Of a DNA stretch of 64,000 nucleotides, positions 2,823 through 46,218 are shown one piece after another. The stretch comes from Minisyncoccota bacterium (GTDB lineage Bacteria; Patescibacteriota; Microgenomatia; UBA1400; UBA12028), in NCBI GenBank assembly GCA_016211945.1, contig JACRHV010000006.1:46723-110722 (forward strand). Direction: 5' to 3'. The translations under genes were made by a program, and so were the position numbers. Position 1 is the stretch's first letter; the number at the start of each line of letters is the position of its first letter. The notes beneath the pieces were generated by a model, which ran no database searches, was not told the origin of the DNA, and saw only the letters and a list, made by a program, of their open reading frames with translations.

Positions 2823-2845
2823 CTATTTTCGTATGTAAGAAAGCA

Positions 2846-4480: not shown

Positions 4481-4489
4481 AAATCCTCC

Positions 4490-4798: not shown

Positions 4799-4835
4799 AG
4801 TTCCTCCTTATTTTTGAATATACATACAAACGAAG

Positions 4836-4862
4836 TTAGCAGTAACTTATCAGAAGTGCTAA
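4836..4862. promoter_or_regulatory. CIRCE-like inverted repeat (HrcA operator) upstream of groES
   Basis: TTAGCAGTA-N9-AAGTGCTAA on plus strand (reverse complement TTAGCACTT-N9-TACTGCTAA) vs consensus TTAGCACTC-N9-GAGTGCTAA; located 38-64 nt upstream of groES start. Confidence 0.65.
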
Positions 4863-4927
4863 TTTGTGTCAAGGGGCAGAGCTGAATAAATTTTCACCCT
4901 TCTTTTCTATGCAGTATAATAACTCCT

Positions 4928-12198: not shown

Positions 12199-13035
12199 CT
12201 ATTCACGTAATTCTTGCGATTGAGATGATGTGGTTGAAGAAATGGGCTGGTCTATTTTTGCCGGATTTTCCGCCACATTTTCATGTGGTCCAAAAAAGCG
12301 CTGGAGCGTTGTGTAAATGAGACGAAGCAAGGAGTACACAATACTGAAACAGAGTGCGGTAATGACAAAAAGCTTCTTCCCTGCTGGGAGAAATATAAAA
12401 ATGAGAAACGAAAAAATAGGCAGGGTAAACTGCATGCGTACTACTTCACGACGCGTCACTTTGTATGGCGAGGCCAATGAGTTAATAACCTCCAAAATAA
12501 AGATTAAAATTGACTGCAGAAGGTTAAGCGACATATGTGGATGTGTCAAGTCGTATTTCCCTAAAAATATGAGGTTAAATGGCTGCTGCACTTTTGGCAT
12601 CCACGAATAAATTAAATGAAGATCCTCTCCAAGTAGTCCTTTTGCAAAAATGCGCCACAGCATGAGTGCGATGATGACTTGGATAAAAAGATCGAGTAAA
12701 GACGAGTTTACAACGCGTTTATTACTTTGTAAAAGTTTCTTAATTTCCTTGTCTTTTTGAATAGGGTCACCTGAAAGTCTCTTCTCTATCTCATCGATTT
12801 TTTCCTCAATTTCTCTGCGTTCTTTTTCAGACCGTTCTGCAGAAAACGTAAGTGGGAGCATAAGTAAACGAACAATGATGGTAAAAATAATGACGGCAAC
12901 ACCCATGTCTGCCGGAGGTGGGTGCGCAACCGCTGTTCCCGCGGTTGAGGCTAAAGAAAGCACCCAATAAATTCCAACCAAAATGTTGAGAAATGGCTGG
13001 TAAATAATGAGTGTATAAATCTCGGTGATGCTCAT
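12199..13035 (-). CDS. YidC/Oxa1-family membrane insertase paralog (divergent)
   Basis: 'YQPFLNILVGIY' and 'VAVIIFTIIVRLLMLPLT' followed by Lys/Glu-rich coiled region as in YidC TM1-loop; second YidC-like gene besides 25545..26336. Confidence 0.55.
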   Translation of the reverse strand: MSITEIYTLIIYQPFLNILVGIYWVLSLASTAGTAVAHPPPADMGVAVIIFTIIVRLLMLPLTFSAERSEKERREIEEKIDEIEKRLSGDPIQKDKEIKKLLQSNKRVVNSSLLDLFIQVIIALMLWRIFAKGLLGEDLHLIYSWMPKVQQPFNLIFLGKYDLTHPHMSLNLLQSILIFILEVINSLASPYKVTRREVVRMQFTLPIFSFLIFIFLPAGKKLFVITALCFSIVYSLLRLIYTTLQRFFGPHENVAENPAKIDQPISSTTSSQSQELRE

Positions 13036-24656: not shown

Positions 24657-25082
24657 TTAAAAAGAATGGAGAAAAGAATCGAGCGCTTGATTGACGAGTG
24701 CATCGGCGCGCGCGTTTTCGCTTCGAGGAATGTGCGTGAAGGTAACAGGATAACCCAAAGAGGTGAGCACATCTTGTATCTTCTTCACATATGCAAGAAT
24801 GTGGGGCTGCTTTATTTTGTACCTTCCATTAAGTTGTTCCACAACGAGCTGAGAGTCCAAACGAAACTCAAGTGTCTGGGGGGTGGGGAAGTGTCCTAAC
24901 TCTTTTTCTTTCGCTACCCAGGAAAGGGCTCGAAGTACCGCCTCATACTCAGCAACATTATTTGTTGCGATCCCAAGATATACCCCGGACTCAAAAAGAA
25001 TAGTTTCTCCGTCAAGTACAACAACTCCTGTTGCGGCGTGGCCGGGATTTCCGCGCGATCCGCCATCAGTAAAAATACGCAT
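24657..25082 (-). CDS. rnhA: ribonuclease H (RNase HI-like)
   Basis: 141 aa; 'MRIFTDGGSRGNPG' (DEDD first Asp), 'NNVAEYEAV', C-terminal 'ENARADALVN'. Confidence 0.75.
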   Translation of the reverse strand: MRIFTDGGSRGNPGHAATGVVVLDGETILFESGVYLGIATNNVAEYEAVLRALSWVAKEKELGHFPTPQTLEFRLDSQLVVEQLNGRYKIKQPHILAYVKKIQDVLTSLGYPVTFTHIPRSENARADALVNQALDSFLHSF

Positions 25083-25083
25083 A

Positions 25084-25548
25084 CTACGCTTCTTCCTGTT
25101 GGGGAAGAGATCCTACTGGATACACCGTAAGTCGTCGGTCTCTTCCAATCCCGTCTGATTTTGTCTCAACTCCGGCTTCTTTGAGAAGAGTATGAACGAT
25201 GCGTCGTTCCTCGCTTGAGAGATAGGGGAGCGTTGTTGGTGCGTTGGTCGCTCGCACTCGCTCCAATGCCTCGTCTGCAATACGTTGAACAACCTCTTGT
25301 CTTCGATCAAGATAGTCGTTCACCTCAACCGTCAGGCGTTTATCGGCTAAATCATCTCTGTATGTCAATGTTAGTATCCGCTGTAACGCCTCTAGTGTTT
25401 CGCCTCTATGTCCTATGAGCATTCCTGAGTCTTCTTCTGGGACACGAAAAACAACTCGTGTTTCACTATCTTTTTCCTCGATCTCAACAGTAACATTCTG
25501 ACACCCCATGTGGGCGAGTAACATTGTCACATACTCATGCATTGTCAT
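25084..25548 (-). CDS. jag: Jag/KhpB-like KH + R3H domain RNA-binding protein
   Basis: 154 aa; position downstream of yidC; R3H-like 'ERRIVHTLLKEAGVETKSDG'. Confidence 0.8.
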   Translation of the reverse strand: MTMHEYVTMLLAHMGCQNVTVEIEEKDSETRVVFRVPEEDSGMLIGHRGETLEALQRILTLTYRDDLADKRLTVEVNDYLDRRQEVVQRIADEALERVRATNAPTTLPYLSSEERRIVHTLLKEAGVETKSDGIGRDRRLTVYPVGSLPQQEEA

Positions 25549-26336
25549 AGAAACTCCTTATTTCCTGCTTGCCATCCTAGCCGATGGCGAATCCAAGAAT
25601 ACGCTTGTTTTGTATACGACGTAAGTCCTCCCGGACCGGAGAGGAGCCATTGTTGGCCTATGCTAAAAACGGTTGAGATAACCCAGTACATCGCCAGGCC
25701 TGCGGGGAAACGTGTTGCAGCGATTCCTGTTACAACAGGCATCATGAACACCATTTGCTTCTGCATTGCCTCTGCCATCTCCTGCACGTTTTCTTCTTTT
25801 TTATTCTCTTGTTGAATCTTCTTTGATTTTGCGTTGTTAGGAATCAAGTCGTGTCCCTCAACACCAGGCAAGATCATAACAGAAAGGATGAGTTGTGTGA
25901 TGCCGGAAAGAATGGGAAGGATGTATGTTCCGTCTGGTTGTGCAAGATTCATCCCAAAAAACTGCGTATTTATCACGATTCCGTTTATTTCATTTGATGT
26001 GAGAAAGGTGTTGAGAACTTGATACAGCGCAATGAGCACAACAAATTGAAGAATGTAGGGGAGACACCCAGCGGCCGGGTTGATGTTGTGCTTTTTGTAG
26101 AGATTCATCTGCTCTTGCTGGAGAAGTTTTTGATCATGCCCATGCGTTTTTTTGAGCCTATCCAACTCTGGCTTTAATGATTGAATCTTCTTTTGGGACT
26201 TGATTGCTGGGACAGAGAGGGGGGCTAAAACTAATCGAAGAATCAGTGTAAAAATGATAATGGCGAGTCCAAAATTCCCAACGGTTGTATAAAGAAAAAT
26301 AAGAAACTGCAAAAGCGGCGCTGTAAGAAAATTCAT
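25545..26336 (-). CDS. yidC: membrane protein insertase YidC (short Gram-positive/CPR type)
   Basis: 'AIIIFTLILRLVLAPLS', 'NPAAGCLPYILQFVVLIALY' YidC signatures; rnpA-yidD-yidC-jag synteny. Confidence 0.9.
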   Translation of the reverse strand: MNFLTAPLLQFLIFLYTTVGNFGLAIIIFTLILRLVLAPLSVPAIKSQKKIQSLKPELDRLKKTHGHDQKLLQQEQMNLYKKHNINPAAGCLPYILQFVVLIALYQVLNTFLTSNEINGIVINTQFFGMNLAQPDGTYILPILSGITQLILSVMILPGVEGHDLIPNNAKSKKIQQENKKEENVQEMAEAMQKQMVFMMPVVTGIAATRFPAGLAMYWVISTVFSIGQQWLLSGPGGLTSYTKQAYSWIRHRLGWQAGNKEFL

Positions 26337-26342
26337 ATATCC

Positions 26343-26546
26343 TCATCTACATGAGAGTATCCGTCTCAATCCCATGAATAATCCCCGCATTGTACCATAC
26401 TTCTCGATACACGAGATTGCATAATCACTACAGGTGGGGGAGTGTTTACACTGTGGAACATACCCAAAAATAGTTTTCTGCATCGCATCAATTCCAGGAC
26501 GAATGAATTGATAGATACGAATAAGAAGAACGAAGAAGGTTTTCAT
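26343..26546 (-). CDS. yidD: membrane protein insertion efficiency factor YidD
   Basis: 67 aa; 'CKHSPTCSDYA' YidD Cys motif. Confidence 0.85.
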   Translation of the reverse strand: MKTFFVLLIRIYQFIRPGIDAMQKTIFGYVPQCKHSPTCSDYAISCIEKYGTMRGLFMGLRRILSCR

Positions 26547-26859
26547 GATTGAAATACTTGGAACTCTGCGATAAGTTCGCGAATAATTTTTCTTTTGTCT
26601 TGTGAATAGAGAACGAGAACAATCTCTTTGTTTTGTTGAGTTGTGAGGAGCGGAAGGAGTGCCGCCCGAATAGCCCTTTTTAATGCGTTTCTTTTTGTGG
26701 AAAGAGGGACAACTTGAGAAGAAACAATAATGGCGGCCCGGGAAGTTCCTTCTCTCTCTTTCCAGTACATCTGAAAAGATTCTTTTCTTTTTTTGTGCGC
26801 TCCGCGAAAAAAAGAAGACTGTGTTCTGAGTGGAAATCTGTAACGTAAGGGAAGCATTC
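26543..26859 (-). CDS. rnpA: RNase P protein component (start placed at internal Met downstream of rpmH)
   Basis: 'FFRGAHKKRKESF...RAAIIVSS...STKRNALKRAIRAAL' RnpA pattern; the longer ORF (to 27001) would overlap rpmH. Confidence 0.7.
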
Positions 26860-26877
26860 TTCTATTGTACGCGCGTA

Positions 26878-27021
26878 CTACACCGTTAGTTTTTTGCGGC
26901 CTTTTGCTCTTCGGCGGGCGAGAACTTTGCGACCGAGTCGTGTTGCCATGCGTTGGAGAAATCCATGTACGCGTGCGCGTTTTTTCTTTTTTGGTTGCCA
27001 AGTTCTGAATGTCTTTGCCAT
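26878..27021 (-). CDS. rpmH: 50S ribosomal protein L34
   Basis: 47 aa '[47 protein letters not shown]'; embedded in a longer spurious ORF in the track. Confidence 0.9.
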
Positions 27022-27086
27022 AGTGCGGGGATTGTAGCAGAGGAAAGAATGTATTGCAAATGAGTCTTGCGCAAAAAATAAAAGGT

Positions 27087-27149
27087 CGTTATGATTGTGG
27101 ATAAGTCTCTTTCCCCTGCCTGAAAATAAATAAGATATCCACATTTTTC
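27087..27149. promoter_or_regulatory. cluster of three DnaA boxes between rpmH and dnaA
   Basis: TGTGGATAA (27087-27095, perfect reverse-complement TTATCCACA), ATATCCACA (27125-27133, 8/9), TGTGGACAA (27141-27149, 8/9). Confidence 0.6.
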
Positions 27150-27170
27150 TGTGGACAAAAGGCGCTCTAT

Positions 27171-28628
27171 ATGGATCTTGATCGAGAAAAACTTTGGAAT
27201 ACTGCTTTGTCAGATTTAGAAAACTCTTTTTCTCCTGGAACGTTTTCAACCTGGATTAAACCTCTTCGTATTCGCGAAATAAAGGGTGTTGGAGATGATC
27301 ACCTTATGATAACGTTTGTCTGTCCCAACACATTTCACATCCGCATGATCGAGGATCGATACTATGCGCTCATTAAGGAGGCGCTCGACAGGATTACAAA
27401 AAAGAAAAACAATCTCCAATTTGAGATTAAAATTATTAACACAGAACCTCAAAAAGTGGTGGGGGAGAATCGCGACGAAGCCACTATTACACCACAAGAA
27501 AAAAAGGCAGTGCCCCAAACGCTTTTCCAGTCTCAACCCTACTCACAACCCATACAGCACCATCAAGATCAAGTGTTTCGCTCCTCTCTCCATAGGGCTG
27601 GTCTGCGCGAGGACTACACTTTCGAGACCTTCGCTGTTTCTACGAGTAATGAAATGGCACACGCCGCCGCGATCGCTGTTTCTCAAAATCCAGGAACCGC
27701 ATACAACCCCCTTTTTCTTTATGGTGGTGTCGGAGTGGGGAAGACCCATCTCATGCAGGCAATTGGAAATAATATTTTGAGGAAAAATGCTGATACATCG
27801 ATTTACTACACCACAGGAGAACAGTTTACGAATGAAATTGTCGCCGCAATACAACAGAAAAAAACCATACAACTTAAACAGAAGTTTCGCACATACAAAA
27901 TATTGTTGGTTGACGACATTCAGTTTTTGGCGGGAAAAACATCTGTTCAGGAGGAATTTTTTCACACCTTTAACGCCATTACCCCGGCGGGAGGACAGAT
28001 TATTCTTACCTCAGATCGTCCTCCGCATGAGATCAATCCACTGGAAGACCGACTAAAATCGCGATTTGAGGCGGGGCTCATTATTGATATTCAGCAACCA
28101 ACCTTCGAGCTGCGCACCGCAATCATTCTTATTAAGGCAAAAAAACTCGGCCTCCAGGTTCCTATGGATCTCGCACAGAAGATCGCAAGTGAGGTGGAAA
28201 GTACAAGAAAACTTGAGGGAATTCTCGTAAAACTTCACTCGGAAATTTCATTGTTCCACAGAGAACTCACTCCCGACCTCGTTTCTACCATGCTCGGCAA
28301 AACAGAACAGACAGAGTTTCCGCAAAACACAATTCGCCCCGCTGAGGTTATCAAGACCGTCGCAAACCATTTTCACGTTTCCACCGCCGCACTCAAGGGC
28401 CCCTCCAGAGTAAAACACCTAGTTGAGGCGAGACATGTCGCAATGTACATCCTCCATAACCAACTCAAGGTTCAACTCGAGGAGGTTGGAGGGATGTTTG
28501 GGGGAAGAGATCACACGAGCATCCTTCACGCCTCAAACAAAATACGAGACCTTATTGGAACAGATGAAACGACGCGGACAAACGTGAATGCCATCAAGAC
28601 AAGTCTTCTTTTTTCCACAACAGTGTAG
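27171..28628 (+). CDS. dnaA: chromosomal replication initiator DnaA
   Basis: 485 aa; Walker A '[10 protein letters not shown]', '[12 protein letters not shown]', C-terminal DNA-binding domain 'HVAMYILHN'. Confidence 0.95.
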
Positions 28629-28906
28629 GTATTTTTGGGGATAACGAGGGAAAACCTCTCTTCATATTGTGTATATGTGCATATCGCACGAGGAGATATC
28701 CACTTATACACATTTTCCGAGAGTTTTCCACAAACTTTTCCACATTTTTACGGCAGTAATCAACACGAAGGTATCCCACACTAGTCGGTTCTCTCTCCAA
28801 AAGTTTTCCTCTTTTCCCCAACACTACTACATACTACTACTATCTTAAGATATATATTAGAGAAACAAACTTTGCTTTTTTTCTTTTTCCACATACAATA
28901 TCGACT
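28629..28906. other. candidate oriC segment (DnaA-box-like motifs + AT-rich unwinding element) between dnaA and dnaN
   Basis: 278-nt non-coding spacer with ATATCCACT, TTTTCCACA (x2), TATCCCACA-like motifs and AT-rich 'TCTTAAGATATATATTAGAG' near dnaN start. Confidence 0.5.
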
Positions 28907-30007
28907 ATGAAGATAAAGGTACTTCAAGAGAATCTTTTGCGTGCTGCACAGGATGTTGGTAGGGGGATCTCCACAAAACCTCCTCTCCCCATATTATCAT
29001 GCATTCTTCTCGAGACAAAACAAGGGAAACTCTCATTAAAAGCCACAGATCTCTCCGTGGGGATTCAGGCGGAGGTGGGGTGCAAGGTGGAGGAGGAAGG
29101 GATTGTTGCTGTTTCAGGGAGAACGCTTATTGAACTTCTCTCAACATTTTCCGCAGGATCGATGGAGATTGAATCTCAAGAGGGGAAAATGGTTTTACGG
29201 TCGCAAAAAACTATGTCTTCAATACAGACAGTTGACTCAAAAGACTTTCCGCCTTTTCCTGAAAGAGACAATGATGGAGTAGTTCTATCGAGCGATCAAT
29301 TTATTAGCCTTATTGAAAGAGGGGGGGTGGCGGCGGGCGTTGATGAGACGCGCCCCGTTTTTTCCTCAATGCTCTTCGAGTGTTCAATCTCTCATATTGC
29401 CGTTGTGGCGACAGACGGCTATAGATTAAGTAAAGAGGTTGTGGATGTTGCAAGTGCAAAAGAGTGTATTGCACTTGTCCCTGCAAAAATTATGAGGGAG
29501 GTTGTGCGCATTGCACAAAAACAGGGGGGAGAAGTTTCCATGGTAGTCTCAGGCCAATTGGGGCAGGTGTTTTTCGGCCTTAAAGAGTATGAGATTATAG
29601 TTCGTCTTGTTGATGCTGAGTTTCCTCAATACAGCGCCATTGTTCCCCGTGAGACACAGCTCAACATCCAAGCAGAGGCGTCGGAATTGTTGTCTGCCGC
29701 AAAAACAGCAATGGTTTTTAGCAAAGAAGTCTCTGGAATTATTCAGATGAAGATAGAAAAAAGTATCCTTATAATCTCCTCTGCCGCCGCAACAGGAGAA
29801 AGTTCTGTCGAGGTTGAGACAAAGAAAGTAAGGGGGGTTGAAGGGGAAATTTCATTTAATGGGAAATATCTCATTGAGTTCCTCTCGCTTGTAAAAACAG
29901 GAGAGATAGAGTTTGGAATGAATGAGTCGCTCAAACCGGGGATCTTTACAATCCCATCACAGAAGAATTTTTATTATGTTGTTATGCCGTTTCGGGTGCA
30001 GAAGTAG
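28907..30007 (+). CDS. dnaN: DNA polymerase III beta sliding clamp
   Basis: 366 aa; 'MKIKVLQENLLRAAQDV...LPILSCILLE' DnaN N-terminus; dnaA-dnaN synteny. Confidence 0.9.
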   Translation: MKIKVLQENLLRAAQDVGRGISTKPPLPILSCILLETKQGKLSLKATDLSVGIQAEVGCKVEEEGIVAVSGRTLIELLSTFSAGSMEIESQEGKMVLRSQKTMSSIQTVDSKDFPPFPERDNDGVVLSSDQFISLIERGGVAAGVDETRPVFSSMLFECSISHIAVVATDGYRLSKEVVDVASAKECIALVPAKIMREVVRIAQKQGGEVSMVVSGQLGQVFFGLKEYEIIVRLVDAEFPQYSAIVPRETQLNIQAEASELLSAAKTAMVFSKEVSGIIQMKIEKSILIISSAAATGESSVEVETKKVRGVEGEISFNGKYLIEFLSLVKTGEIEFGMNESLKPGIFTIPSQKNFYYVVMPFRVQK

Positions 30008-31844
30008 GTTGATTTTTTTGTCGATCTAAAATTTCCTGTGGATTGGTTGTAATAAGCTCATGCTCCTCTGGCGACGCAATCACGCGTAGAGCAACGTGAT
30101 TTTGACCCGCAAAAAAGAGACCCTCCCCAACATCGCTTGCCATGAGGAATCTTTTCTCTCCTTCACTAAGGAAGAACACTTGTGAAAGATAGGGGATTGC
30201 GGCGCTGGACTGCTTCATTAAAAATTGTAATGAGGAGTTTGTGACAATAGCCTTTCCAAAATCGTTATTCAAGAAATCCTCAACGTCCTGGGTGATTGTT
30301 GTGATGCCTAAGAAATATTTTCGCGCGCGCTTCGCCATGGAATGAAGGAAGTTTGCACTGTCTCGATACTTCATGAAGTACCAGGCCTCATCAACAATGA
30401 GAATGCGCTTCTTTAGTTTTTTTCTAATGCGCGTCCAGATGAAATCGAGGATAAGAAACATGGCAATAGGACGAAGCTCCTCCTCCATCTCTTTAACAGA
30501 GAACACGGTGAATTGGTTCTTAATATCAAAGCTCGATTTTTGGTCAAAAATGCCGCGGAACGATCCTTTAATATATTTTTCAAGGCGTGCCGCCAGATTT
30601 TGTGCATCCTGATTTTCCATACCAATAAGTGATTTATATAAATCCTCCATAAGTGGAGGCTCGTTCGCCTGCGTTGCAGGATCCGGCGTAATCCCTTTTG
30701 CTTTGTATGCCGCGATGAGTGCGCGATCAAGCATTGCGTCTTCTGTGGGGGAGAGATCTCCCATCATGATTTTGAGCAGCGTATGAATGGAAATAATCTT
30801 CATGCCGAGTTCATTCTCGCCCTCTTCATAGACAGAGCTTAGGTCAAACGGATTGATTTTTTTGGGCGAATCAAAAGTAAAGTTGATGTACTCCCCACCA
30901 ACAGAGGAACAGAGGTCTTCATACTCGTGTTCAGGGTCAAGAATAATAACCTCTGCGTCAAACATGAGTTGGCGTAGCGCCTCAAGTTTTACGGCGTACG
31001 ATTTTCCAGCACCGGACTTTGCAAACACCACCATGTTCGCGTTTTCCATACTGAATCGGTCAAACACTACGAGGGATTCGTTGTGTTCATTGATTCCATA
31101 TAAAATTCCCGTATCACTCGTCAATTCTGCAGAAGTAAATGGAAAGGTTGTTGCGAGAGAGGTGGTGTCCATGTTTCTCGTAATGAGCAACTTGTCTAGA
31201 CCAATGGGGAGTGTGGTTTTAAATCCATCCTCCATCTGCAACCCAGCGACCTTGCTCACGATAAGGAGAGAGCCAAGAAGTGACCGAATTTGATTAGTAA
31301 CTTTATTGAGTTCCTCAACAGATTCTGCTGAAAGTGTGATGTAGAGGCCAAATTGATAAAACCGCTCCGCCCCTTTTGCGAGCTGTTCTTGGATGGATCG
31401 CGCGTCCTCCAGCTTAATCTCGGTATTAATGTTGCTGAGTTTTCCCTGTTTAATATCAGAACTAATCTCTGCCTCCATCTCGGTAATTTTTCTTCGAAGG
31501 TCGTCCAAGATTTTTTTCACCTCCACGGGGAAAATATGCATTGAGATATCAAGCGAGTGTGGAAAGTTAATGAGAGGGGAAAGCCAGTTTGCGGGAACGG
31601 TTCGCGGATACCCAGCAACAAAAAGTGTGCGCGTATAAATATCATTGATTTTTTGATATGAAAAATCGACCTCAATAGCTTCTGGAGAGATGATATCTTG
31701 AATACTCACAAGGCCGGAAGAAAAAGACTGAAGTTCTTGTGGGGGTTGAGCGGACGAGGCTGACGTGGGAGTGGAGGGATTTCCGCCAGAGTCAGTCTGT
31801 TTTTTTTGGAATGGGAATGAAAAGGTGGGCAGTGCGAAAGGCAT
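29982..31844 (-). CDS. VirB4/TrbE/CagE-family type IV secretion ATPase (core + ATPase domains)
   Basis: 620 aa; Walker A 'VVFAKSGAGKSYAV'; upstream VirB4 central-domain pattern 'IEVDFSYQKINDIYTRTLFVAGYPRTV..NWL'; Pro/Ser/Gln-rich N-terminal linker. Confidence 0.75.
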   Translation of the reverse strand: MPFALPTFSFPFQKKQTDSGGNPSTPTSASSAQPPQELQSFSSGLVSIQDIISPEAIEVDFSYQKINDIYTRTLFVAGYPRTVPANWLSPLINFPHSLDISMHIFPVEVKKILDDLRRKITEMEAEISSDIKQGKLSNINTEIKLEDARSIQEQLAKGAERFYQFGLYITLSAESVEELNKVTNQIRSLLGSLLIVSKVAGLQMEDGFKTTLPIGLDKLLITRNMDTTSLATTFPFTSAELTSDTGILYGINEHNESLVVFDRFSMENANMVVFAKSGAGKSYAVKLEALRQLMFDAEVIILDPEHEYEDLCSSVGGEYINFTFDSPKKINPFDLSSVYEEGENELGMKIISIHTLLKIMMGDLSPTEDAMLDRALIAAYKAKGITPDPATQANEPPLMEDLYKSLIGMENQDAQNLAARLEKYIKGSFRGIFDQKSSFDIKNQFTVFSVKEMEEELRPIAMFLILDFIWTRIRKKLKKRILIVDEAWYFMKYRDSANFLHSMAKRARKYFLGITTITQDVEDFLNNDFGKAIVTNSSLQFLMKQSSAAIPYLSQVFFLSEGEKRFLMASDVGEGLFFAGQNHVALRVIASPEEHELITTNPQEILDRQKNQPTSAPETA

Positions 31845-31908
31845 AGCGTTTTTATCTTAACATAAAAATATAGATGCCTTTTTTCGCAACGAAGGACTAC
31901 ATCACTGC

Positions 31909-32793
31909 TCACGATGGAGATTGGGATGGTTGGGAATCAGAAAAAACCTCAACGGGAACCTTTGGCTCCGCGGAAGGTTGTTGTGCCGGAGTAAAAGACG
32001 CGGATTCTTGAAGAACAGTTTGTGGCAGAGCCTCAGTTTTTACCGGCAATGAAGGCCGTTCCTCTTCGCGCGTGCTGGCAGAGTCTTTTGTAAACTCCTG
32101 TAGAGCTGGTTGGTTCATCACGCCACTTAAACTTGCCTCAACCACGGCCGTCGTGTAACTTTTTGTGTCTCCCATTTTTTGCCCCTCATATGAGCCTGGA
32201 TTGTAAATGGTGTACAAAAGCTGGATGAGCTCTTGTGTGTTCAACTGTCTTGCTTGTAGTCCAATGCGACCAAACTGTGCAGTAAGGTGATCTCTCTTAG
32301 GCTCAAGGTCGGTGAGCGCTCTTTCCAGAATGTACGCGCGGTCCAACTGAAAAGAATCTTTCTTTTTAATGGAGGGAATTGCTGACGCTGCCTCAAGAGA
32401 GGTTGCTCGAAAAGGAATGACGACATAGAACTTTTTATCTAAGATGCGTCGCTCCTTTACGAGCTCGCCAACAAACTCCCGATATCGGCGAATCTGCGTT
32501 TTACGGAGAGGGGAAAGTGTTTTATCTTCCCACTCTTTGACATAGCGAAGATATGTTGTTACGTCTTTTTTTTGAGATCGGACAACTATTTCTATGGGGA
32601 AGGTGAGAGAGTTGAGGAGGCCTGCATAGGAATAGATGATCGCATCCTGCTCTTCTTCTGCGAGAAGTCCGAAGTTCAGTGATCCAACAGAAAGAACCAT
32701 CGCGACAGAACCATCTTTCAAGATAATAATGTCGTTTGTGATGTCGAAAATCTCAAGGTAGTTTTGTGTGGTAGATTGAATATGGTTTGTCAT
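31909..32793 (-). CDS. VirB4 N-terminal-domain-like protein (separate ORF preceding the ATPase)
   Basis: 294 aa; 'DIIILKDGSVAMVLSVGSLNFGLLAEEEQDAI..LLNSLTFPIEIVV' resembles extreme N-terminus of VirB4/TraC; ends in Pro/Ser/Gln-rich low complexity; 64-nt AT-rich spacer before next ORF. Confidence 0.45.
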   Translation of the reverse strand: MTNHIQSTTQNYLEIFDITNDIIILKDGSVAMVLSVGSLNFGLLAEEEQDAIIYSYAGLLNSLTFPIEIVVRSQKKDVTTYLRYVKEWEDKTLSPLRKTQIRRYREFVGELVKERRILDKKFYVVIPFRATSLEAASAIPSIKKKDSFQLDRAYILERALTDLEPKRDHLTAQFGRIGLQARQLNTQELIQLLYTIYNPGSYEGQKMGDTKSYTTAVVEASLSGVMNQPALQEFTKDSASTREEERPSLPVKTEALPQTVLQESASFTPAQQPSAEPKVPVEVFSDSQPSQSPS

Positions 32794-34022: not shown

Positions 34023-34994
34023 CTATGGTTGGACCGCGGGAACAATAACCTCCATTGTTGAAGTATAGTTTTGGGGAGTTGTGGCGGTTCCGACAAATCG
34101 AAAATACGGGAAATATGTTTGATCAACGCTTCGGTACTCCAAGGATACCTGGGTAAAAATGATTGAGGAGAAATCCTGGACAGAAACATCAATAGGGGTT
34201 TGTGCGCGATTATTCACACCAATAGTGAGAAAAGTACCACCCCCACTTTTGATTTCCTGGAGAGCGTTTTCTACTGGACGCGTGGAATATGTTTTCTCAA
34301 CTTGCGCTTGTGTGTATTGATACGGAAGAAAACGAGCAGCCTCTATCCCACGAGAGGAAAGAGTAATAAGCGCGACAGGAAGAGAAGAATTTTCAGCGTA
34401 GAGGGGAAATCCATCGACGGTTAATGTAAAGGGAATAATAATAATGGCGGAGGCGCTCACATTTTGAAGAGGCGCACCATGAAGGTCATTAAAATATAGA
34501 ACTTGATCCTTTTGTGGTGAGAGGGAAGAAAAACCAAGTGAATCGAGAAAATCTTGTGCGGGAACGAGCGCTGTTTCGTAAGAAAGAGGAGTTTCAACTT
34601 CAGGGGAAGCTTGAACAGTATATGTGACGGCCTGCGAAACTTCATCAATGAGGAGGAATGATGTCTTATTTTCTCGCACCCAATATCCCTCAACACCACT
34701 TTCTTTTAACTGTAGTTTTTGTGCGAGTTTTGTAGAGAACTCACGTAGATCTGAAGTAAGAGGTGTTGAGGAATAAAGAGGAAGAACTTGTGGGAAACTT
34801 GGGAGAGATCCAGAGAATTCAACAGATTGAAAACGCGTTGTTGTTCCAGTCGGACTCGTGAGAACAGAAGGTGATTGTTTTTTTTGTAACGCAAATTGAA
34901 GTATAAAAAGGACAAAAACAAGAAGGGCAAGAAAAAGAAGGAAAAATAAAAGAGGATGTTTTTTTATTTTGGAAACAGCAAGAAACATTTTCAT
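34023..34994 (-). CDS. membrane-anchored extracytoplasmic protein of the T4SS-like operon (VirB8-like topology?)
   Basis: single N-terminal TM 'LLFFLLFLALLVFVLFILQF' then ~280-aa Ser/Thr-rich domain; start at internal Met gives 4-nt overlap with upstream gene. Confidence 0.45.
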   Translation of the reverse strand: MKMFLAVSKIKKHPLLFFLLFLALLVFVLFILQFALQKKQSPSVLTSPTGTTTRFQSVEFSGSLPSFPQVLPLYSSTPLTSDLREFSTKLAQKLQLKESGVEGYWVRENKTSFLLIDEVSQAVTYTVQASPEVETPLSYETALVPAQDFLDSLGFSSLSPQKDQVLYFNDLHGAPLQNVSASAIIIIPFTLTVDGFPLYAENSSLPVALITLSSRGIEAARFLPYQYTQAQVEKTYSTRPVENALQEIKSGGGTFLTIGVNNRAQTPIDVSVQDFSSIIFTQVSLEYRSVDQTYFPYFRFVGTATTPQNYTSTMEVIVPAVQP

Positions 34995-37900
34995 GGTGTA
35001 GGTCCTCCCGCACATTCTGATTTTACAGGGTCATTAACTTTCGGAAGTGTGGGGAAAATAGGAAGATTTGTGTAAATATGCCCCTTAGCCTTCTGGTTCT
35101 GCCTTTCATAGTGTAGGTGTATTCCAAAAGAAAACCCAGTATTTCCCGTTAGACCAAGATGGCTTCCGGGATTCACGCGAACCCTTTGGGAGATGTTTCC
35201 GGGATTTAAATTCCCATTGAACGCGGACATATGACCAAAAATAAACACAATTCCTTCGTCTGTATGCAAAACAACATGGTTGCCATAAAGCACGTAAGCA
35301 AGCGGAGAAGACGTCATGGGCACAAAGTATGCGTATCCACCAAATGGAGAGTATATGGGGGTTGGCCCGGTGGCCGCGGTACCAATGTCTATCGCGTTTC
35401 CAGACAGATCCCAAGTTGCGTGACCGGGATCAGCAAGTTGTGTAATAACACCCGTCGTTGGCCAGCAGCCCTTATGAGCCACGCCATCCAACCCCTCAAC
35501 GTTCACGTTATTTACACTGCTTATATTTGCCACAGCATCTCGGTTGGTCACAAATGGCCCCAAATTCAGAATATTCGCAACTCCCCCTATCGTTAACGCC
35601 CCCATCGCTGTCCAGGCGATTGTTGTTCCGCTAATAGTGGTACTTGCTAAGGTACTCAGTGATTGAATCCCGTTCGAGAGAACAGCAGATCCTGCGCGTA
35701 AACCGCTTATTATCTGCTGTCCAACTCCTTTGGCAAGCAGCTTTATTCCAGATAAAGCGGAAGAAAATGCGTGTGAGAAAAAAGAAAAAACACCCTGAAA
35801 AGATTGAAAGAGTTTAAAAATTTGCACAAGAGATGCGATAAGTGACGCAAAACCCGCAAGTAGGGAGAGGATCCCGAGTCCGATGAGAAAGTTGACAAAC
35901 TTACCAAGATACTCGATTCCTTTGAGGTTTTGTTCGATAATTCCATCAAGAAAACCTCCAATAATGGGAATACTTGCGATCCATGACTTAATCGCCATCG
36001 CGGTGTCGAACGCGACGTCCCAAGCCTGTCCAGCTTCGGGGCCGGCAAATAACGTTAATAATGCGCCAATTGCTTGTTTTCCTCGTTCGATATCGGCAGA
36101 CCTGTCGGAGTTTCCTAAAAACTGTTGATGTTGAGCTTCGCCGCTGAACTCAGATATCTCGAGAATATATGATGGGGCCGTAAAAAGAAGTTCGAACTCA
36201 TCTGTTCCAAATCCGCGCATCATGTACTCGAAAAAAACAGCCTCATTACCCCACGCATCAGCATTACCATGAATAAAGTCTTGAATTTCTCCTGCGCTCC
36301 AAATCTGTGAGGCAAGGTATTGAAAAAATCCCCGTTTCGCATGAATCCTTCGGGCAGTTTGTTGCGCCTCATTTTTCTGATCAAGCGCTTTCTGTATAAA
36401 AGCAGACTGTTTATGAAGCTCTCCGTCTGTAATCTTTCCGTTTTTATGCTGTTGTTTCAGGACGGCTAACTGGTTTGCGAGCGCAGTTTTTGGCGAAAAC
36501 AAACTATGAGACATGACCTTGTGACCGTTGATGTGCTGTCCTTGTTCATCAACATCGCTCATATCCTCAAGGAGTTTTTGTAGAAGCGGGTTTACGGATG
36601 AAGATTTTAGGCTGAGCGGATCTGCATAGAGGGCTGCAGGATTGTCTGACGCAAGATATGCTTCATATGCCAGCGCATCCATATATTGGGTAAGCAATAT
36701 GGCAAAAGCGACATTGTCGTTATGGAACGCTCGACGAATACGCTCTTGTGTTTGTGGTTCTGTACGAAATTCGTTGAGGACTGCTTGAGCAAAATCTTCT
36801 AAGTCTTTTGAGGTGAGATTGGTGGAGTTTTGTCGCAAAAGCGATTTTGCTTGCAGAGAGAGAAGGAGTTTGTCTATTTGTGAGTAGGTTAGCCCTTCTT
36901 TTTGTAAGGACTCGCGAAGAAAATCCTCAAAAGATCGCGAAGATATGTCTTTTATTTGTGAAGCCTCTTGGAGAGAAGAAAGACGTTCTTCTTTTTGTAC
37001 ACCATCTTGCTCAAGGGCATTCCAGTATTGCGCGTCAGCCGCAAGCGCAAGATTATCTGGAGTAATCCCATGCTTCTCACTGAACGCACGGAGATTCTCA
37101 AGAGATTCTCCTTTTTTGATGAGCCTATTGGAGATGAGGTGTTGTTCGAGCGCCGCCTGAAAAGATGGATTGTGCTGTAGACTGATAAGAGTACTAATAT
37201 AAAGATTTATTCTTGCAGAGCCTTCACCCCCAGTTGAAGTTAAAAATGCGGAAAGACGCGTAGAATCAAGCCTTTGGAGTTCGTAAAGAATGGTAGGAGT
37301 GATGTGTCGAGAAATTTGTGACTCAAGCGCTTGGAATCCTTTTGGATTTTTATCAGGATTGATTCCGGCTTGGGCGGCAACAGCGTAAAGAATGGCGTGT
37401 CGAATCCGCGCGACTTCATCGCTTAATGCGCGATCCTGAACAACAAGTTTTTCGATGGAGATTTGCTGATCTACAGGTTTTTTTGTCTCTATTTTCTCTT
37501 TTTCTTCACGAAGAACTTCTTCTGCGGCGTCAGAGTCAGTTTCTTGCGTTGATGAAGTAGAGAATGTGGCTCCGGCTGTTTGTTTTGGAGCGGAAGCCGC
37601 CTTTTCCTGCGGTATTGGCTCTGGCTCTTCTGCTTTTTTTGTTGCTGTAACCTCTTGTTTTACTCCGTATGAGCTAAACTCCAACAAGATTTCCGTTAGA
37701 GTAAGTGCGGCCTCAATAGACTCAATGACTCTAGATTTTTTGTCCGCCCTGTTTATGCCGAAAAAATATTCGCGTTGGATATAGTCCCAAAGATGTGTAT
37801 TGTATGATGTTTCATCTCGATGAAGAAAAAGAAACTCATCAACTGTAGCAAGCCAAATGATTAATGCATGGAATTCCACCTCTTCTTTTCTTGGATGAGG

Positions 37901-38161
37901 ATTGAGATGGGGGTAGAGGTGATAAATAACCGCACTTTTTGTGAGTCCTACAAGCGTTTTTCCTTCAGATTCTGAAACAAAGCTATCGGCGCTGTATGTT
38001 CCGTCACTAAAAAGATAGAAAAAAACGGTATCATTGCGATACCGCTCAAGCATCTCAAGAACATCTCTTCCTTTGATCGCGTATTGGCGGTCTATGGCGT
38101 TTTTTAGAGCATCAGATATCGTGTGTTCCGTCTGGATATGAGCCATGAATGTATTGTACAT
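34991..38161 (-). CDS. 1056-aa protein: large N-terminal domain, TM cluster, C-terminal M23 (LytM-type) peptidoglycan endopeptidase
   Basis: TM 'FLIGLGILSLLAGFASLIASLV'; C-terminal 'GNHVVLHTDEGIVFIFGHMS...LGLTGNTGFSFGIHLHYE' (M23 HxxxD...HxH motifs). Confidence 0.65.
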   Translation of the reverse strand: MYNTFMAHIQTEHTISDALKNAIDRQYAIKGRDVLEMLERYRNDTVFFYLFSDGTYSADSFVSESEGKTLVGLTKSAVIYHLYPHLNPHPRKEEVEFHALIIWLATVDEFLFLHRDETSYNTHLWDYIQREYFFGINRADKKSRVIESIEAALTLTEILLEFSSYGVKQEVTATKKAEEPEPIPQEKAASAPKQTAGATFSTSSTQETDSDAAEEVLREEKEKIETKKPVDQQISIEKLVVQDRALSDEVARIRHAILYAVAAQAGINPDKNPKGFQALESQISRHITPTILYELQRLDSTRLSAFLTSTGGEGSARINLYISTLISLQHNPSFQAALEQHLISNRLIKKGESLENLRAFSEKHGITPDNLALAADAQYWNALEQDGVQKEERLSSLQEASQIKDISSRSFEDFLRESLQKEGLTYSQIDKLLLSLQAKSLLRQNSTNLTSKDLEDFAQAVLNEFRTEPQTQERIRRAFHNDNVAFAILLTQYMDALAYEAYLASDNPAALYADPLSLKSSSVNPLLQKLLEDMSDVDEQGQHINGHKVMSHSLFSPKTALANQLAVLKQQHKNGKITDGELHKQSAFIQKALDQKNEAQQTARRIHAKRGFFQYLASQIWSAGEIQDFIHGNADAWGNEAVFFEYMMRGFGTDEFELLFTAPSYILEISEFSGEAQHQQFLGNSDRSADIERGKQAIGALLTLFAGPEAGQAWDVAFDTAMAIKSWIASIPIIGGFLDGIIEQNLKGIEYLGKFVNFLIGLGILSLLAGFASLIASLVQIFKLFQSFQGVFSFFSHAFSSALSGIKLLAKGVGQQIISGLRAGSAVLSNGIQSLSTLASTTISGTTIAWTAMGALTIGGVANILNLGPFVTNRDAVANISSVNNVNVEGLDGVAHKGCWPTTGVITQLADPGHATWDLSGNAIDIGTAATGPTPIYSPFGGYAYFVPMTSSPLAYVLYGNHVVLHTDEGIVFIFGHMSAFNGNLNPGNISQRVRVNPGSHLGLTGNTGFSFGIHLHYERQNQKAKGHIYTNLPIFPTLPKVNDPVKSECAGGPTP

Positions 38162-38166
38162 GAAAA

Positions 38167-39978
38167 CTACGACACAAGCCGCGCAGGACTTCCAACGAGC
38201 GCTGAATATGTCATTTCAAATACACCAAATCGCATGCCACCCGCATATGCGATTGAAAGCCAGGAGGGTAGATGTTCAGTATCGTGCGTGTAAGAAGTTG
38301 GTTTTTCTGATGACGCATTTTTTTCTTCAGAATGGCGCACAAGCGATTTTAAGGTATCTTTTGCTTCACAAAAATAACAAATTCCGCACTCGCCAACCCA
38401 ATCGCCAACATGTTTTCCCGCATGTTTTTTTTCACGTTTACGCTCACACAGAGGATTTTTACACCCCTCATCAGAGAACTTCCACGCTGTGTCAAATCGG
38501 TGCGCACCAATGAAGGAACGGAGCTGTTCTTGCGTAAAATCTTGACTACGAAAAAATGAAAGAAGTGCATCAGAAGTTCCAAAAGATTGTAGGTCTGGGA
38601 TGCCTAAAGAGGAGGCAAATGAAGGTTGTGATAACACCGTTCGTATGCCGCCGAACGGAGTTCCCGCTGCGCAGTCGACGACTGACAAAAAGTCAAACTG
38701 TAGAGAACCCATGGTTGGTGCTTTTTTAATAATGTGGGACAAAAATGTTTCTCGTACTTCCGGAAGTTTTTCTGAAGCAAGAGTTTTTCGCCGTTTTGGA
38801 TGCAGAAATTGTTTGTATGCATCCCACACCGCATTTGAATTAAAATCGCCATCGTCAAATCCAAGACCATTCATAGCAACCTCGTTTGCGATGCTCAGCG
38901 CAGCTTCTGAATACGCGTCGTGGTGAAGATATTCTTCAATCAGAACAGAGGTCATGGTCTCCACAACCCTCCTCATTCTTTTTTCGCGAGTATTGAATCG
39001 CGCAATTGCTGTTTGGTGTTCTGTAAGAATAGTTTGAATCTGAGGGGAATCAAGAGAAGCTTTGTGGAGAAGCGCCGTGAAGAATGATTGTGTGTCCAAA
39101 TGTTGAAACATGAAATCAACAGGAAGAATCTGTTGCATTAGTTCCGGTTCTGTTTGGGGGAGAGGGGGTTGGGAGGTATGGAGAGATGCATGTTCCATGA
39201 GATGTGAGAGCTCAGACAAAGGAAGAGCGGCCTTGTACTGATGAAGAAACACAAAGAATTGGTGGCCTTCCGGTAAATAGGGGTTGTATGCGAGCTGGAC
39301 GGCCTCAAGAAATGATTCTCTGTCTGGATGATATACTTGGTGATCTGGCATCGCAAAAATATATTTTTGACCAACAGATGTCGCCCTATCAGCTTCTTTT
39401 CGCATGTGCGGAGGAATAGTCTTTCGGATGTCCTGAGGAAGAGAACCTGAATATGAAATAAATCCTTCAGGAGGAGTGTGTGCGATGTGTTCAATAAGCA
39501 TGTGTGGCGCTGTATGAGAAAGTTCGGAGCTCATAAGAGTCATCACTTCCTTAAGTTGAGCTGCTTCTCTTGCATACCGCTGTGCTCGTTCTAGGTCATG
39601 ATTCTTCATGGCAAGCATCATCGCTTTGCGCTGCTGATCCATAAGACCTTGGTGTGCGTATTGAACTCCCACCAAATCGTCGATATGCAATGTTTGTGCT
39701 GTATGCCACAGAGGAGTGACGACGTTGCAGTAAAAACGAAAACGCATTTCTTCTTGGAGATACGTCGCGTACTCTTTGTGTAAAAGTTCCGAAACGTGCG
39801 GTCGAACGCGCTTTTTTGTAATGAATGAAGGAGTGTTTCCGTAGTGCTGAAAAAGAGATTCAATGGGACCACGGAGTGTGTGGTAGAGATTGAATCGAGG
39901 AACAGGTATGCCAGTGCGTTGTTGAATATATTCTTTGGTTGGAGAACGTCTGGTACGAGTTTCGGCTGCAACGGCCAT
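38167..39978 (-). CDS. hypothetical 603-aa protein (first gene of the minus-strand T4SS-like operon)
   Basis: long ORF, no TM or P-loop, Cys cluster 'CERKREKKHAGKHVGDWVGECGICYFCEAKD'; no family recognised. Confidence 0.5.
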   Translation of the reverse strand: MAVAAETRTRRSPTKEYIQQRTGIPVPRFNLYHTLRGPIESLFQHYGNTPSFITKKRVRPHVSELLHKEYATYLQEEMRFRFYCNVVTPLWHTAQTLHIDDLVGVQYAHQGLMDQQRKAMMLAMKNHDLERAQRYAREAAQLKEVMTLMSSELSHTAPHMLIEHIAHTPPEGFISYSGSLPQDIRKTIPPHMRKEADRATSVGQKYIFAMPDHQVYHPDRESFLEAVQLAYNPYLPEGHQFFVFLHQYKAALPLSELSHLMEHASLHTSQPPLPQTEPELMQQILPVDFMFQHLDTQSFFTALLHKASLDSPQIQTILTEHQTAIARFNTREKRMRRVVETMTSVLIEEYLHHDAYSEAALSIANEVAMNGLGFDDGDFNSNAVWDAYKQFLHPKRRKTLASEKLPEVRETFLSHIIKKAPTMGSLQFDFLSVVDCAAGTPFGGIRTVLSQPSFASSLGIPDLQSFGTSDALLSFFRSQDFTQEQLRSFIGAHRFDTAWKFSDEGCKNPLCERKREKKHAGKHVGDWVGECGICYFCEAKDTLKSLVRHSEEKNASSEKPTSYTHDTEHLPSWLSIAYAGGMRFGVFEMTYSALVGSPARLVS

Positions 39979-40103
39979 ATAATGTCCTTACTCGTTCCTG
40001 ACTTTCTCCATGGAGGAGTTCACAGTTGCGGCACAGTCCACGATTTCCACGTGGTTCCGAGTTGGATTATGGTAGCAGAGAATATGATGGTTGTGAAGAT
40101 TGA

Positions 40104-41444
40104 ATGTGGAGTGTGGGTGGCGAATACATTATTGATGGATCATTGCGTTTTTATAGAGTGGTAGGTAGGATGGAGCATATGGGATTTGATACATCAATGC
40201 TCGGTGTGGAAGGGGTGGAGGCATTTACTTCTCAGCCCGCTTCAGCTCATACGACAGCTGATGCAGTAGCAGATGAAGGTGTTGTAGATGGTGGAGCCGC
40301 AACGTGGATGCCAACCGCAGACGCCGCCACTAAAAACGTGGCCCCAGAAGATGAGAAAAAACAAAAGAAAGAGTTAAAGGAAGAAGACTACGATCTACTT
40401 GCCGCACTCGTTCGACAGCTCAACGAAGCAAATACCGCCTTTTATATAGAGGAGGCGAAAGCTCCAGAAAATCTCGAGGAGCTTAGAAAAGAACATAAAA
40501 AGAACATGCAAACACTTCATGAGCCCATTCTCCTTACGTTAGGAAATTCCGAGCAAAAAGTAGCCCACATTCTTACTAGAGATTTATTTGATCTTTCCCA
40601 ATCTGCAAAAGTTTTTTTTGAGATTACTCGCGTGCTTCAGGATTCTCCCTCAGAGGAGAAACTTACATATAGACTGGAGTTGGAGCATGTAGTTTCTGAG
40701 GGACTTACTCGAGAAATCGTGCGAAAAACACAAGAAAGTCAGAGAGCTTCTAAAGAAGAACCGCAAACAGAGGAAGAGATAAAAAAGGAAGATGCTAGTA
40801 AGGTTCTTGACAAGATTATTGAGAATCCAAATTTGGACGAAGAAAAGAAAAGCCATTTTCGAAAGCTAAAAGAGGCTTTGTTAGCCCTGCCCGGTGAGTT
40901 CTCAGAACACGTTATACAGGGGACCCATATTGATCAACTTATCGAATTTCTTCTAGTGGGAGGATCGTACGGATCATCCTCTGGAAGTTTTGAACATATG
41001 AAGAAAAAAGGGGAGGATTGGTTGGTTGGACACACACATATCGTAGAAGTTTTTGGCCAGCCACCAGAAGGAAATAATCGATGTTTCCACGCCATGGAGG
41101 AAACACTGTTAGAAATTGGCGACACCGATGTTCAAAACAATATACAGAATAAAAATACAGCAAAAGAATTTCTCGATGAAGAAAAAAAGTTTGATTTTAG
41201 CAAATATAAAATGTGGCTTATCTCAAAATATAAACTCTTTTTTGCCATACAGCGCGATGCTGTGGTGAAAAAACTGAAAGAACAGTTATGTGATGGTCTG
41301 GAAGGAAGAAGAGGGATAAAGGTGAAGGTTAAAGATGAACAAAAAGAAGTAGATGAACGAGAATCAAAAGAACTCAGACTCTCGCAAGACGCTCTAGATT
41401 TATTTTTAGAGATGGCGATGGATGCTACGGAGAAGGAAAAATAA
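40104..41444 (+). CDS. hypothetical acidic Glu/Lys-rich protein (start uncertain)
   Basis: 446-aa ORF, highly charged, predicted helical; divergent from 38167..39978. Confidence 0.45.
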   Translation: MWSVGGEYIIDGSLRFYRVVGRMEHMGFDTSMLGVEGVEAFTSQPASAHTTADAVADEGVVDGGAATWMPTADAATKNVAPEDEKKQKKELKEEDYDLLAALVRQLNEANTAFYIEEAKAPENLEELRKEHKKNMQTLHEPILLTLGNSEQKVAHILTRDLFDLSQSAKVFFEITRVLQDSPSEEKLTYRLELEHVVSEGLTREIVRKTQESQRASKEEPQTEEEIKKEDASKVLDKIIENPNLDEEKKSHFRKLKEALLALPGEFSEHVIQGTHIDQLIEFLLVGGSYGSSSGSFEHMKKKGEDWLVGHTHIVEVFGQPPEGNNRCFHAMEETLLEIGDTDVQNNIQNKNTAKEFLDEEKKFDFSKYKMWLISKYKLFFAIQRDAVVKKLKEQLCDGLEGRRGIKVKVKDEQKEVDERESKELRLSQDALDLFLEMAMDATEKEK

Positions 41445-41558
41445 TCGCTTACTTTTGTAGTAAGACAACTCGATGCCTCTCAGACCAGTAAATCTCTGGT
41501 AATAGAAATGTAAAAATAAAGACAACGCTCCCGCCAATCTCGTGTTAAAATAAGTACC

Positions 41559-44450: not shown

Positions 44451-44465
44451 AAAATCAAAGGGAAA

Positions 44466-46154: not shown

Positions 46155-46218
46155 GTCTTCGTATTGTACAGAACAATCGAGAGAACAACAAGCATTTTCC
46201 TGGTACAATACCAGAGAT

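Follow-up and report, generated by a model that had tools for sequence, protein, structure and literature searches.

Does a virB4 gene that is divided between two open reading frames (ORFs) represent a decaying gene, an artificial break introduced by sequencing, or a genuine two-gene form of the ATPase? This question is raised by a locus in a 64,000-nucleotide (nt) stretch from a Minisyncoccota bacterium (contig JACRHV010000006.1, positions 46,723 to 110,722; the whole stretch is hereafter the window), which derives from a metagenome-assembled genome (MAG). Here an ORF of 294 amino acids (aa; ORF1) precedes, on the minus strand, an ORF of 620 aa (ORF2; Table 1). The original prediction, which was made from the letters alone, likened ORF1 to the extreme N-terminal domain of VirB4/TraC, assigned the VirB4 central region and the Walker A ATPase motif to ORF2, and left the choice between the three possibilities open. 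We are highly confident that ORF1 and ORF2 are two intact, co-evolving genes that jointly encode the VirB4-type ATPase of a chromosomal, origin-proximal type IV secretion system (T4SS) of Patescibacteria of the Pacebacteria/Microgenomates type. Each half is homologous to VirB4, the two are exactly complementary, the split is conserved with purifying selection on both parts, and there are natural one-piece orthologs collinear with the pair. On this proposal the product of ORF1, a TrsD/TraC-like protein, is equivalent to the first ~200 residues of a one-piece VirB4, namely the first half of its N-terminal domain, and ORF2 supplies the remainder, comprising the second half of that domain and the P-loop motor.

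Two complementary parts of VirB4

ORF2 is assigned to the VirB4 family of T4SS ATPases on the basis of several concordant matches. Its P-loop region is recognized by the Pfam model P-loop_TraG (101.6 bits, E 4.9e-29, aa 265-568), as well as by AAA_10 and DUF87, and it matches the VirB4 C-terminal domain of known structure (PDB 4ag5) with an E-value of 4e-46. The Walker A (GAGKS, aa 278-282, 30999..31013) and Walker B (LIVDE, aa 482-486, 30387..30401) motifs are both invariant in the alignment of homologs. Against the NCBIfam model of the CD1110-family VirB4 (NF045971) it aligns with positions 182-734 of 752, scoring 387 bits over a cutoff of 325, and against the VirB4 of Mycoplasma integrative and conjugative elements (ICEs; NCBIfam VirB4_plasma) with positions 293-893 of 894. 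Pfam PF03135 (CagE_TrbE_VirB) matches aa 66-213. Hence the ATPase assignment of the original prediction stands, but the extent given to ORF2 was too narrow, as it also contains the second half of the N-terminal domain and the whole P-loop C-terminal domain. It lacks a complete N-terminal domain, with profile positions 1 to ~180 being absent from it and present in ORF1. As a side observation, positions 327-477 of the NCBIfam SCO6880 family (a 477-position model) match ORF2 aa 68-216; actinobacterial systems may divide VirB4 elsewhere, such that one of the two proteins comprises the entire N-terminal domain.

The resemblance of ORF1 to the VirB4 N-terminal domain was borne out, its matches being confined to an N-terminal stretch of ~170 positions in full-length VirB4 profiles, namely positions 11-173 of 752 in the CD1110-family model and 103-281 of 894 in VirB4_plasma. 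As ORF1 and ORF2 together cover these two full-length profiles collinearly and without overlap, the two halves are complementary. ORF1 also spans the whole of the NCBIfam TrsD/TraD model (NF041427, positions 13-200 of 201, E 2.5e-6), and is best regarded as a distant homolog lying outside the narrow staphylococcal/enterococcal TrsD subfamily. A MAG protein annotated 'Candidatus Pacebacteria' has the same sequence as the product of ORF1, and precomputed annotation of this identical protein gives Pfam PF26593 ('TraC-like'), a match that our local Pfam scan of ORF1 did not return. An AlphaFold2 (AF2) model of ORF1 (mean predicted local distance difference test, pLDDT, 72.5) shows a folded α/β domain at aa 8-200 followed by a disordered tail. 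In a Foldseek search of the PDB with this model the 14 best matches were all TrwK/VirB4 chains of R388 (E-values from 6e-4, 185 columns). This structural evidence is modest by itself and agrees with the coordinates of the profile matches. A sequence search of the PDB with ORF1 gave only chance-level matches, such as the Crb2 Tudor domain and ribosomal protein S15.

Conservation of the split across Patescibacteria

Searching with ORF1 recovered 1622 homologs, and each of the best 120 is a protein of 189-513 aa that stands alone. Likewise, the best 120 homologs of ORF2 are 591-741 aa long with 71-99% identity, and none reaches the length of a one-piece VirB4; these come from Pacebacteria, Woesebacteria, Cerribacteria and Saccharimonadia. 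We then compared 80 related loci (L001-L080), which comprise one genome per species and are all patescibacterial by their best matches. In 72 of the 80 the N-domain gene lies upstream of virB4 on the same strand and ends with its own stop codon, a fused form was found in none of these species-level loci, and six of the remaining eight end less than 600 nt upstream. Inspection of orthologous loci, which had been suggested along with the original prediction, thus points to a conserved feature rather than a lesion. The relative frame of the two genes takes all three offsets (0, 1 and 2) among the species, and the gap between them ranges from -13 to 288 nt (median ~15, mostly less than 60 nt). In the window the offset is 1, ORF1 ending in TGA and ORF2 starting with ATG. 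The order of VirB3-like gene, N-domain gene and virB4 core is common to more than 70 related loci, and adjacency and gene order are tight in ~97% of the informative ones.

Both genes are strongly constrained by purifying selection. In unsaturated pairs the ratio of nonsynonymous (dN) to synonymous (dS) substitution rates lies between 0.012 and 0.077 in the N-domain and between 0.004 and 0.024 in the ATPase. In comparisons with the nearest relatives, where dS is saturated, the N-domain has a dN of 0.10 and the ATPase one of 0.05-0.06. The N-domain evolves the faster of the two, with a median identity of 55% versus 76%. Furthermore, a Logan assembly made independently from run SRR12113407 matches the window at 99.98% identity over an ungapped alignment of 11,875 nt, and contains the same 294-aa and 620-aa genes separated by the same 64 nt. 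A different kind of interruption is seen in other patescibacterial VirB4 ATPases of 1158-1215 aa, which bear an intein with LAGLIDADG homing-endonuclease domains (PF14890, PF14528; P0423, P0424, P0427, P0433, P0434, P0475, P0477, P0486 and P0502).

Natural one-piece orthologs in a sister clade

An exhaustive, profile-free search with the N-domain yielded 1938 cluster representatives, of which the best 150 were considered. In all of these the N-domain is situated at or near the N-terminus, and a single protein, P0324 (787 aa), is both long enough to accommodate the ATPase and possesses one; the other long representatives scanned (597-715 aa) owe their length to long tails. ORF1 aa 5-203 align with P0324 positions 6-204 without gaps (49% identity), and ORF2 aa 52-612 with positions 213-774 (67% identity), leaving just 8 residues between the two stretches. 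The P0324 gene (L083:7477-9840) is found in a locus also encoding PrgI, an M23 peptidase, DnaN, DnaA, YidC and Jag, and was recovered from two independent samples. The homologs of P0324 include 43 fused proteins of 738-897 aa (e.g. P0388, P0425 and P0499), from a patescibacterial sister clade in which proteins labeled Amesbacteria also occur. Split-length ATPases are interspersed among them, with 76-88% identity in the ATPase region. The structure of P0324 modeled with AF2 from 37 natural fusions superimposes on full-length TrwK with template modeling (TM) scores of 0.70 and 0.69 over ~840 alignment columns.

In a neighbor-joining (NJ) tree built from 558 core columns with the TrsE protein of pGO1 as root, which has very short internal branches and no support values, the window falls in an all-patescibacterial clade of 121 sequences, all of split length. 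Its sister clade mixes fused and split forms, for which the Fitch minimum is 7 changes, a count that is indicative only and of which one change involves a partial sequence. The split members of the sister clade have short TraC-like proteins of 198-223 aa, and in two of the three examined the stop codon of this gene and the start of virB4 share a 4-nt overlap (ATGA). At this point the split form, '...GTRVKAL*' followed by 'MKDLNTAKSVPD', is collinear residue by residue with the fused form, 'GTRVKNLSEAKSVPD'. One-piece and two-piece versions of the protein thus replace each other in close relatives.

The junction: tails, leaders and terminal motifs

The low-complexity sequence that had been noticed at both ends of the junction was also found on closer analysis. 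In the AF2 model the tail of ORF1 (aa ~205-294) has pLDDT values below 60, about 47-60, and the tail has no counterpart in the fused ortholog P0324. The TrsD-like proteins of relatives have tails that vary in length from 6 to 485 aa, with a median of 149, and that are rich in P, A, T and Q. The leader of ORF2 (aa 1 to ~45) is variable in the alignment of homologs, showing a consensus 'LPFxKK' followed by variable sequence, and VirB4 leaders in the related loci measure 6-54 aa.

Short motifs recur at the termini that face each other across the junction. The VirB4 leader starts with the pattern hydrophobic-F/L-x-KK in 65 of 75 cases versus 6.8 in shuffled sequences, and the pattern P-P-[LVIM]-[PA]-E-[ILV] occurs in the last 20 residues of 32 of 72 tails versus 0.3 in shuffles, lying no more than 2 residues from the C-terminus in 26 of those 32. 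The variation at third codon positions within the tail motif indicates selection on its protein sequence. In the window, ORF2 bears FPFQKK, and near the C-terminus of ORF1 there is only a degenerate VPVEVF. Related loci with these tail and leader motifs include L012, L024, L031 and L040, and the corresponding regions of the window are 31912..31990 and 31790..31844. Some fused proteins (P0499-P0501) have an internal 'LPAFLQKK' in their long linkers.

The AT-rich spacer described in the original prediction has the length and composition given in Table 1. On the minus strand these 64 nt contain no σ70-type promoter or intrinsic-terminator consensus, the only candidate being a weak -10-like TAAGAT located 9 nt before the virB4 ATG (31845..31870). 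As a separate observation on the 50 nt upstream of the virB4 ATG in L001-L080, 27 of 76 loci have a -10-like hexamer (TACAAT, TAGAAT or TAAAAT) whose end lies 6-8 nt, most often 8 nt, ahead of the start codon. In some species virB4 might have a promoter of its own and an mRNA with no leader or a very short one; we left it out of the main explanation as it is present in 27 of the 76 loci and weak in the window.

Proposed assembly and alternative explanations

We propose that the TrsD-like protein would bind the N-terminal part of ORF2 non-covalently, so that the VirB4 N-terminal domain is made whole again. In the R388 system VirB3 wraps the N-terminal domain of VirB4 (residues 15-400), and these N-terminal domains form the interface of the VirB4 dimer (PMC9259494). 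By analogy with R388, the TrsD-like subunit may be what docks the ATPase onto the PrgI/VirB3-like membrane protein, whose gene ends 14 nt upstream of ORF1. The prgI-like gene, the trsD-like gene and virB4 are probably co-transcribed, as weakly suggested by the spacer being devoid of promoter and terminator consensus.

Several points weigh against this two-gene proposal. The score of ORF1 against the TrsD model is 27.5 bits, compared with a curated cutoff of 200, and both AF2 models are of medium confidence (the pLDDT of P0324 is 68.0, beside the value given above for ORF1). The physical association of the TrsD-like, ORF2 and PrgI-like proteins is drawn from analogy, and the suggestion of co-transcription from the spacer. 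In three of the related loci the pair is rearranged: in L002, a Microgenomates MAG, the trsD-like gene is intact but lies in inverted orientation between the prgI-like gene and virB4 (4955-5977, minus strand); in L003 a gene for a 1097-aa membrane protein (2548-5841) sets the two genes 3.4 kb apart; and L025 has no trsD-like gene within the 2.3 kb upstream of virB4 (1-2293). From these exceptions the two genes appear to behave as independent units, and in Gracilibacteria the trsD-like gene and virB4 are reported to be unlinked (PMC12102498).

The observation that the genes can be unlinked or rearranged also favors an explanation in which ORF1 is an independent accessory protein descended from the VirB4 N-terminus, for instance one that serves as an adaptor or a regulator by means of its long disordered tail. 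The faster divergence of the N-domain, the clade-specific tails with a conserved C-terminal motif, and the lack of an assigned function for TrsD in the portions of PMC12102498 used here are in line with such a role. It is countered by the interleaving of one-piece with split orthologs, which argues that the two states are interchangeable, by the global VirB4 fold of the fused model, and by the tight adjacency and order of the genes in nearly all informative loci, and we accordingly rate it as improbable. Programmed recoding, whereby frameshifting or read-through would yield one VirB4 polypeptide from both ORFs, is suggested by nothing beyond two adjacent ORFs on the same strand with a short spacer. 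We rejected it, as in the window there are 64 nt to cross with stops in all frames, the offset and gap vary among species with no conserved slippery element, and the trsD-like gene is inverted in L002 and distant in L003; these features make it scarcely conceivable.

The two forms of damage contemplated in the original prediction have not survived the comparison. If a recent frameshift or stop in the linker of a one-piece virB4 had left a decaying gene, the sister clade would offer a route to it: one-piece orthologs exist there, and only a small change at the ATGA overlap separates the split from the fused state, implying that a single mutation can interconvert them. However, split length characterizes all 121 sequences in the window's own clade of the NJ tree, the split recurs in 72 species-level loci with all three frame relations, dN/dS is well below 1 in both halves while dS is saturated, and ORF2 retains its own conserved start and N-terminal motif along with intact Walker A and B motifs. 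Conservation, selection and intact motifs together effectively refute pseudogenization, to which we give next to no credence. An error of sequencing or assembly that created an artificial stop or frameshift might have been suspected in a MAG, but the Logan assembly has an identical junction without gaps, the arrangement recurs in 72 other species, and the junction extensions of ~140 aa with the spacer are beyond the reach of a single base error. This possibility is also effectively refuted and can be set aside with near certainty. The remaining option of the original prediction, a natural two-gene VirB4, is the one that holds, but its description as unusual does not, since the split is the majority state in the phylum and has been published (PMC12102498).

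The two-gene proposal can be extended to the view that in Patescibacteria the polypeptide boundary within the N-terminal domain is a labile, functionally tuned joint. The terminal motifs would then act as docking peptides that control the assembly or stoichiometry of the ATPase on PrgI/VirB3, and the split would be regulatory rather than a neutral fission. This extension draws on the repeated interconversion of fused and split forms, with no fewer than 6-7 changes on the NJ tree, through small changes at the ATGA overlap, on the disordered extensions and on the terminal motifs; we offer it as a speculative possibility, and a rather doubtful one.

Genomic context of the locus

The two genes belong to a series of minus-strand genes, and dnaN converges on the 3' end of virB4, in an origin-proximal part of the chromosome (Table 1).

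Table 1. Positions in the window of the two virB4 genes, their parts and their neighbors
Feature	Position	Strand	Basis or remark
Origin-region set: RNase H-like, jag/KhpB (KH+R3H), yidC, rnpA-/rpmH-like ORFs (26543..27249), dnaA, dnaN	24657..30007		
dnaA	27171..28628	+	Translation read as DnaA by eye
dnaN	28907..30007	+	Translation read as DnaN by eye; convergent onto virB4 3' end
ORF2, whole, 620 aa	29982..31844	-	ORF at exactly these coordinates
ORF2 VirB4 core: second half of N-terminal domain and P-loop ATPase	29982..31709	-	
ORF2 N-terminal leader, aa 1-~45: short conserved FPFQKK, then low complexity	31710..31844	-	
Intergenic spacer, 64 nt, 66% A+T	31845..31908	-	
ORF1 C-terminal low-complexity tail, Pro/Ser/Gln-rich, aa ~206-294 and stop codon	31909..32178	-	pLDDT
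ORF1 folded domain, aa 1-~205, TrsD/TraC-like, equal to first half of VirB4 N-terminal domain	32179..32793	-	
ORF1, whole, 294 aa	31909..32793	-	ORF at exactly these coordinates
PrgI/VirB3-like membrane protein, 368 aa	32808..33914	-	Pfam PF12666 PrgI aa 5-88, 29.6 bits (cutoff 27)
330-aa protein between M23 gene and PrgI-like gene	34023..35015	-	Same gene called in independent assembly L082
1056-aa protein with C-terminal M23 peptidase domain	34991..38161	-	Pfam Peptidase_M23 aa 924-1024

Most related loci with enough upstream sequence have a PrgI-like gene ahead of the N-domain gene. The version in the window is long for a PrgI/VirB3-like protein and has a weak C-terminal match to CarboxypepD_reg-like (Ig-like) domains, as do the PrgI homologs of L085 and L087; this part is possibly an extra, extracytoplasmic domain on a VirB3-type protein. 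The 330-aa protein that follows has no Pfam match. The 1056-aa M23 protein is likely the cell-wall hydrolase of the system, that is, an analog of VirB1, and an M23 gene adjoins virB4 in L083, L086 and L087. M23 domains have been described in some patescibacterial VirB1 homologs, and peptidase and lysozyme homologs adjoin virB4 in Southlakia epibionticum (PMC12102498).

On the other side, neighbors corresponding to dnaA and dnaN in L083, L085 and L086 match Pfam Bac_DnaA and DNA_pol3_beta. The cumulative GC skew of the window has its minimum at ~24-26 kb, consistent with oriC being there, and a second YidC-family gene of the window lies at 12199..13035. Among the 24 larger ORFs of the window that were scanned, none had a Pfam match to a relaxase or type IV coupling protein, with the neighbors at 38167..50028 being partly without any Pfam match. 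The latter region adjoins the T4SS genes and includes several large ORFs (603, 446, 963, 679 and 1348 aa) with no Pfam match, which may be unrecognized VirB6, VirB8 or pilin-like components or surface proteins; the AT skew is unusually high at 40-50 kb of the window.

Implications

The two-gene VirB4 is itself already known and ordinary for the phylum, and it leaves the current picture of T4SS biology unchanged. What our analysis adds to the published parts of that picture drawn upon here is the interleaving of fused with split orthologs, the hypervariable junction extensions and the terminal motifs. These are small additions that define no new kind of system; in the portions of PMC12102498 and PMC10633639 used here there is no mention of fused TrsD-VirB4 orthologs, hypervariable tails or terminal motifs. 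For annotation, it would be wrong to flag as a pseudogene or mis-assembly a patescibacterial VirB4 of ~600 aa that follows a 'hypothetical protein' of ~200-500 aa, and the small protein should be named a TrsD/TraC-like N-terminal subunit. The subunit composition matters for reconstitution and structural work because the T4SS is essential for epibiotic growth in the one tractable patescibacterium. The natural occurrence of one-piece and two-piece orthologs amounts to a ready-made experiment, suggesting that the two proteins form one VirB4 protomer, and the one-piece forms point to where a linker could be placed in expression constructs.

Comparison with known systems

ORF1 and ORF2 are jointly collinear with the one-piece VirB4 proteins, including the CD1110 family of Firmicutes ICEs, the VirB4 of Mycoplasma ICEs and TrwK of R388. 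Unlike these, the window has two polypeptides, whose ends at the junction bear ~140 aa of additional low-complexity sequence. The VirB3-VirB4 fusion proteins of some conjugative systems also re-divide the VirB3/VirB4 inner-membrane module, but those are fusions whereas the window presents a fission; in Patescibacteria no VirB3-VirB4 fusions were found by the authors of PMC12102498.

The closest parallel for the position of the break is the staphylococcal plasmid pGO1, in which trsC (VirB3-like), trsD (227 aa) and trsE (672 aa) occur in the same order as their counterparts in the window. TrsD and TrsE (TraD and TraE) characterize the pGO1/pSK41 subclass of the MPF_FATA conjugation systems of Gram-positive bacteria. 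The breakpoint is the same, with TrsE covering positions 183-730 of the CD1110 model and ORF2 positions 182-734. ORF1 aligns with pGO1 TrsD over its whole folded domain (aa 21-202, BLASTP E 1e-7, 21% identity), and ORF2 is 26% identical to TrsE. The two differ in that the plasmid pGO1 is conjugative and carries genes for a relaxase and a coupling protein, whereas the locus in the window is chromosomal and adjoins dnaA and dnaN, and in that pGO1 TrsD is without the long low-complexity tail of ORF1. The pGO1 and patescibacterial splits may share a common inheritance or may have arisen in parallel. As TrsD is unmentioned in the main text of Guglielmini et al. 2014, its likeness to the VirB4 N-terminus rests on PMC12102498 and on our own profile and structure results.

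The fullest match is with the T4SS already described from Patescibacteria (PMC12102498 and PMC10633639). According to Quinonero-Coronel et al. 2025 (PMC12102498), TrsD homologs adjoin virB4 near dnaA and are the commonest T4SS component in the phylum, with 1,664 of 2,272 such homologs being associated with virB4; the cluster is located near dnaA, dnaN, rnpA and rpmH in Paceibacteria and Microgenomatia, and the TrsD homolog of S. epibionticum is listed as essential. In that organism transposon sequencing (Tn-seq) revealed the T4SS to be essential for epibiotic growth, in a system without recognizable relaxase or coupling proteins (Wang et al. 2023, PMC10633639). Those systems combine a PrgI/VirB3-like protein, a TrsD homolog and VirB4 near dnaA/dnaN, rnpA and rpmH with a hydrolase nearby, and the window shows the same arrangement. 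The locus is thus a plain instance of the chromosomal, MPF_FATA-related T4SS of Patescibacteria.

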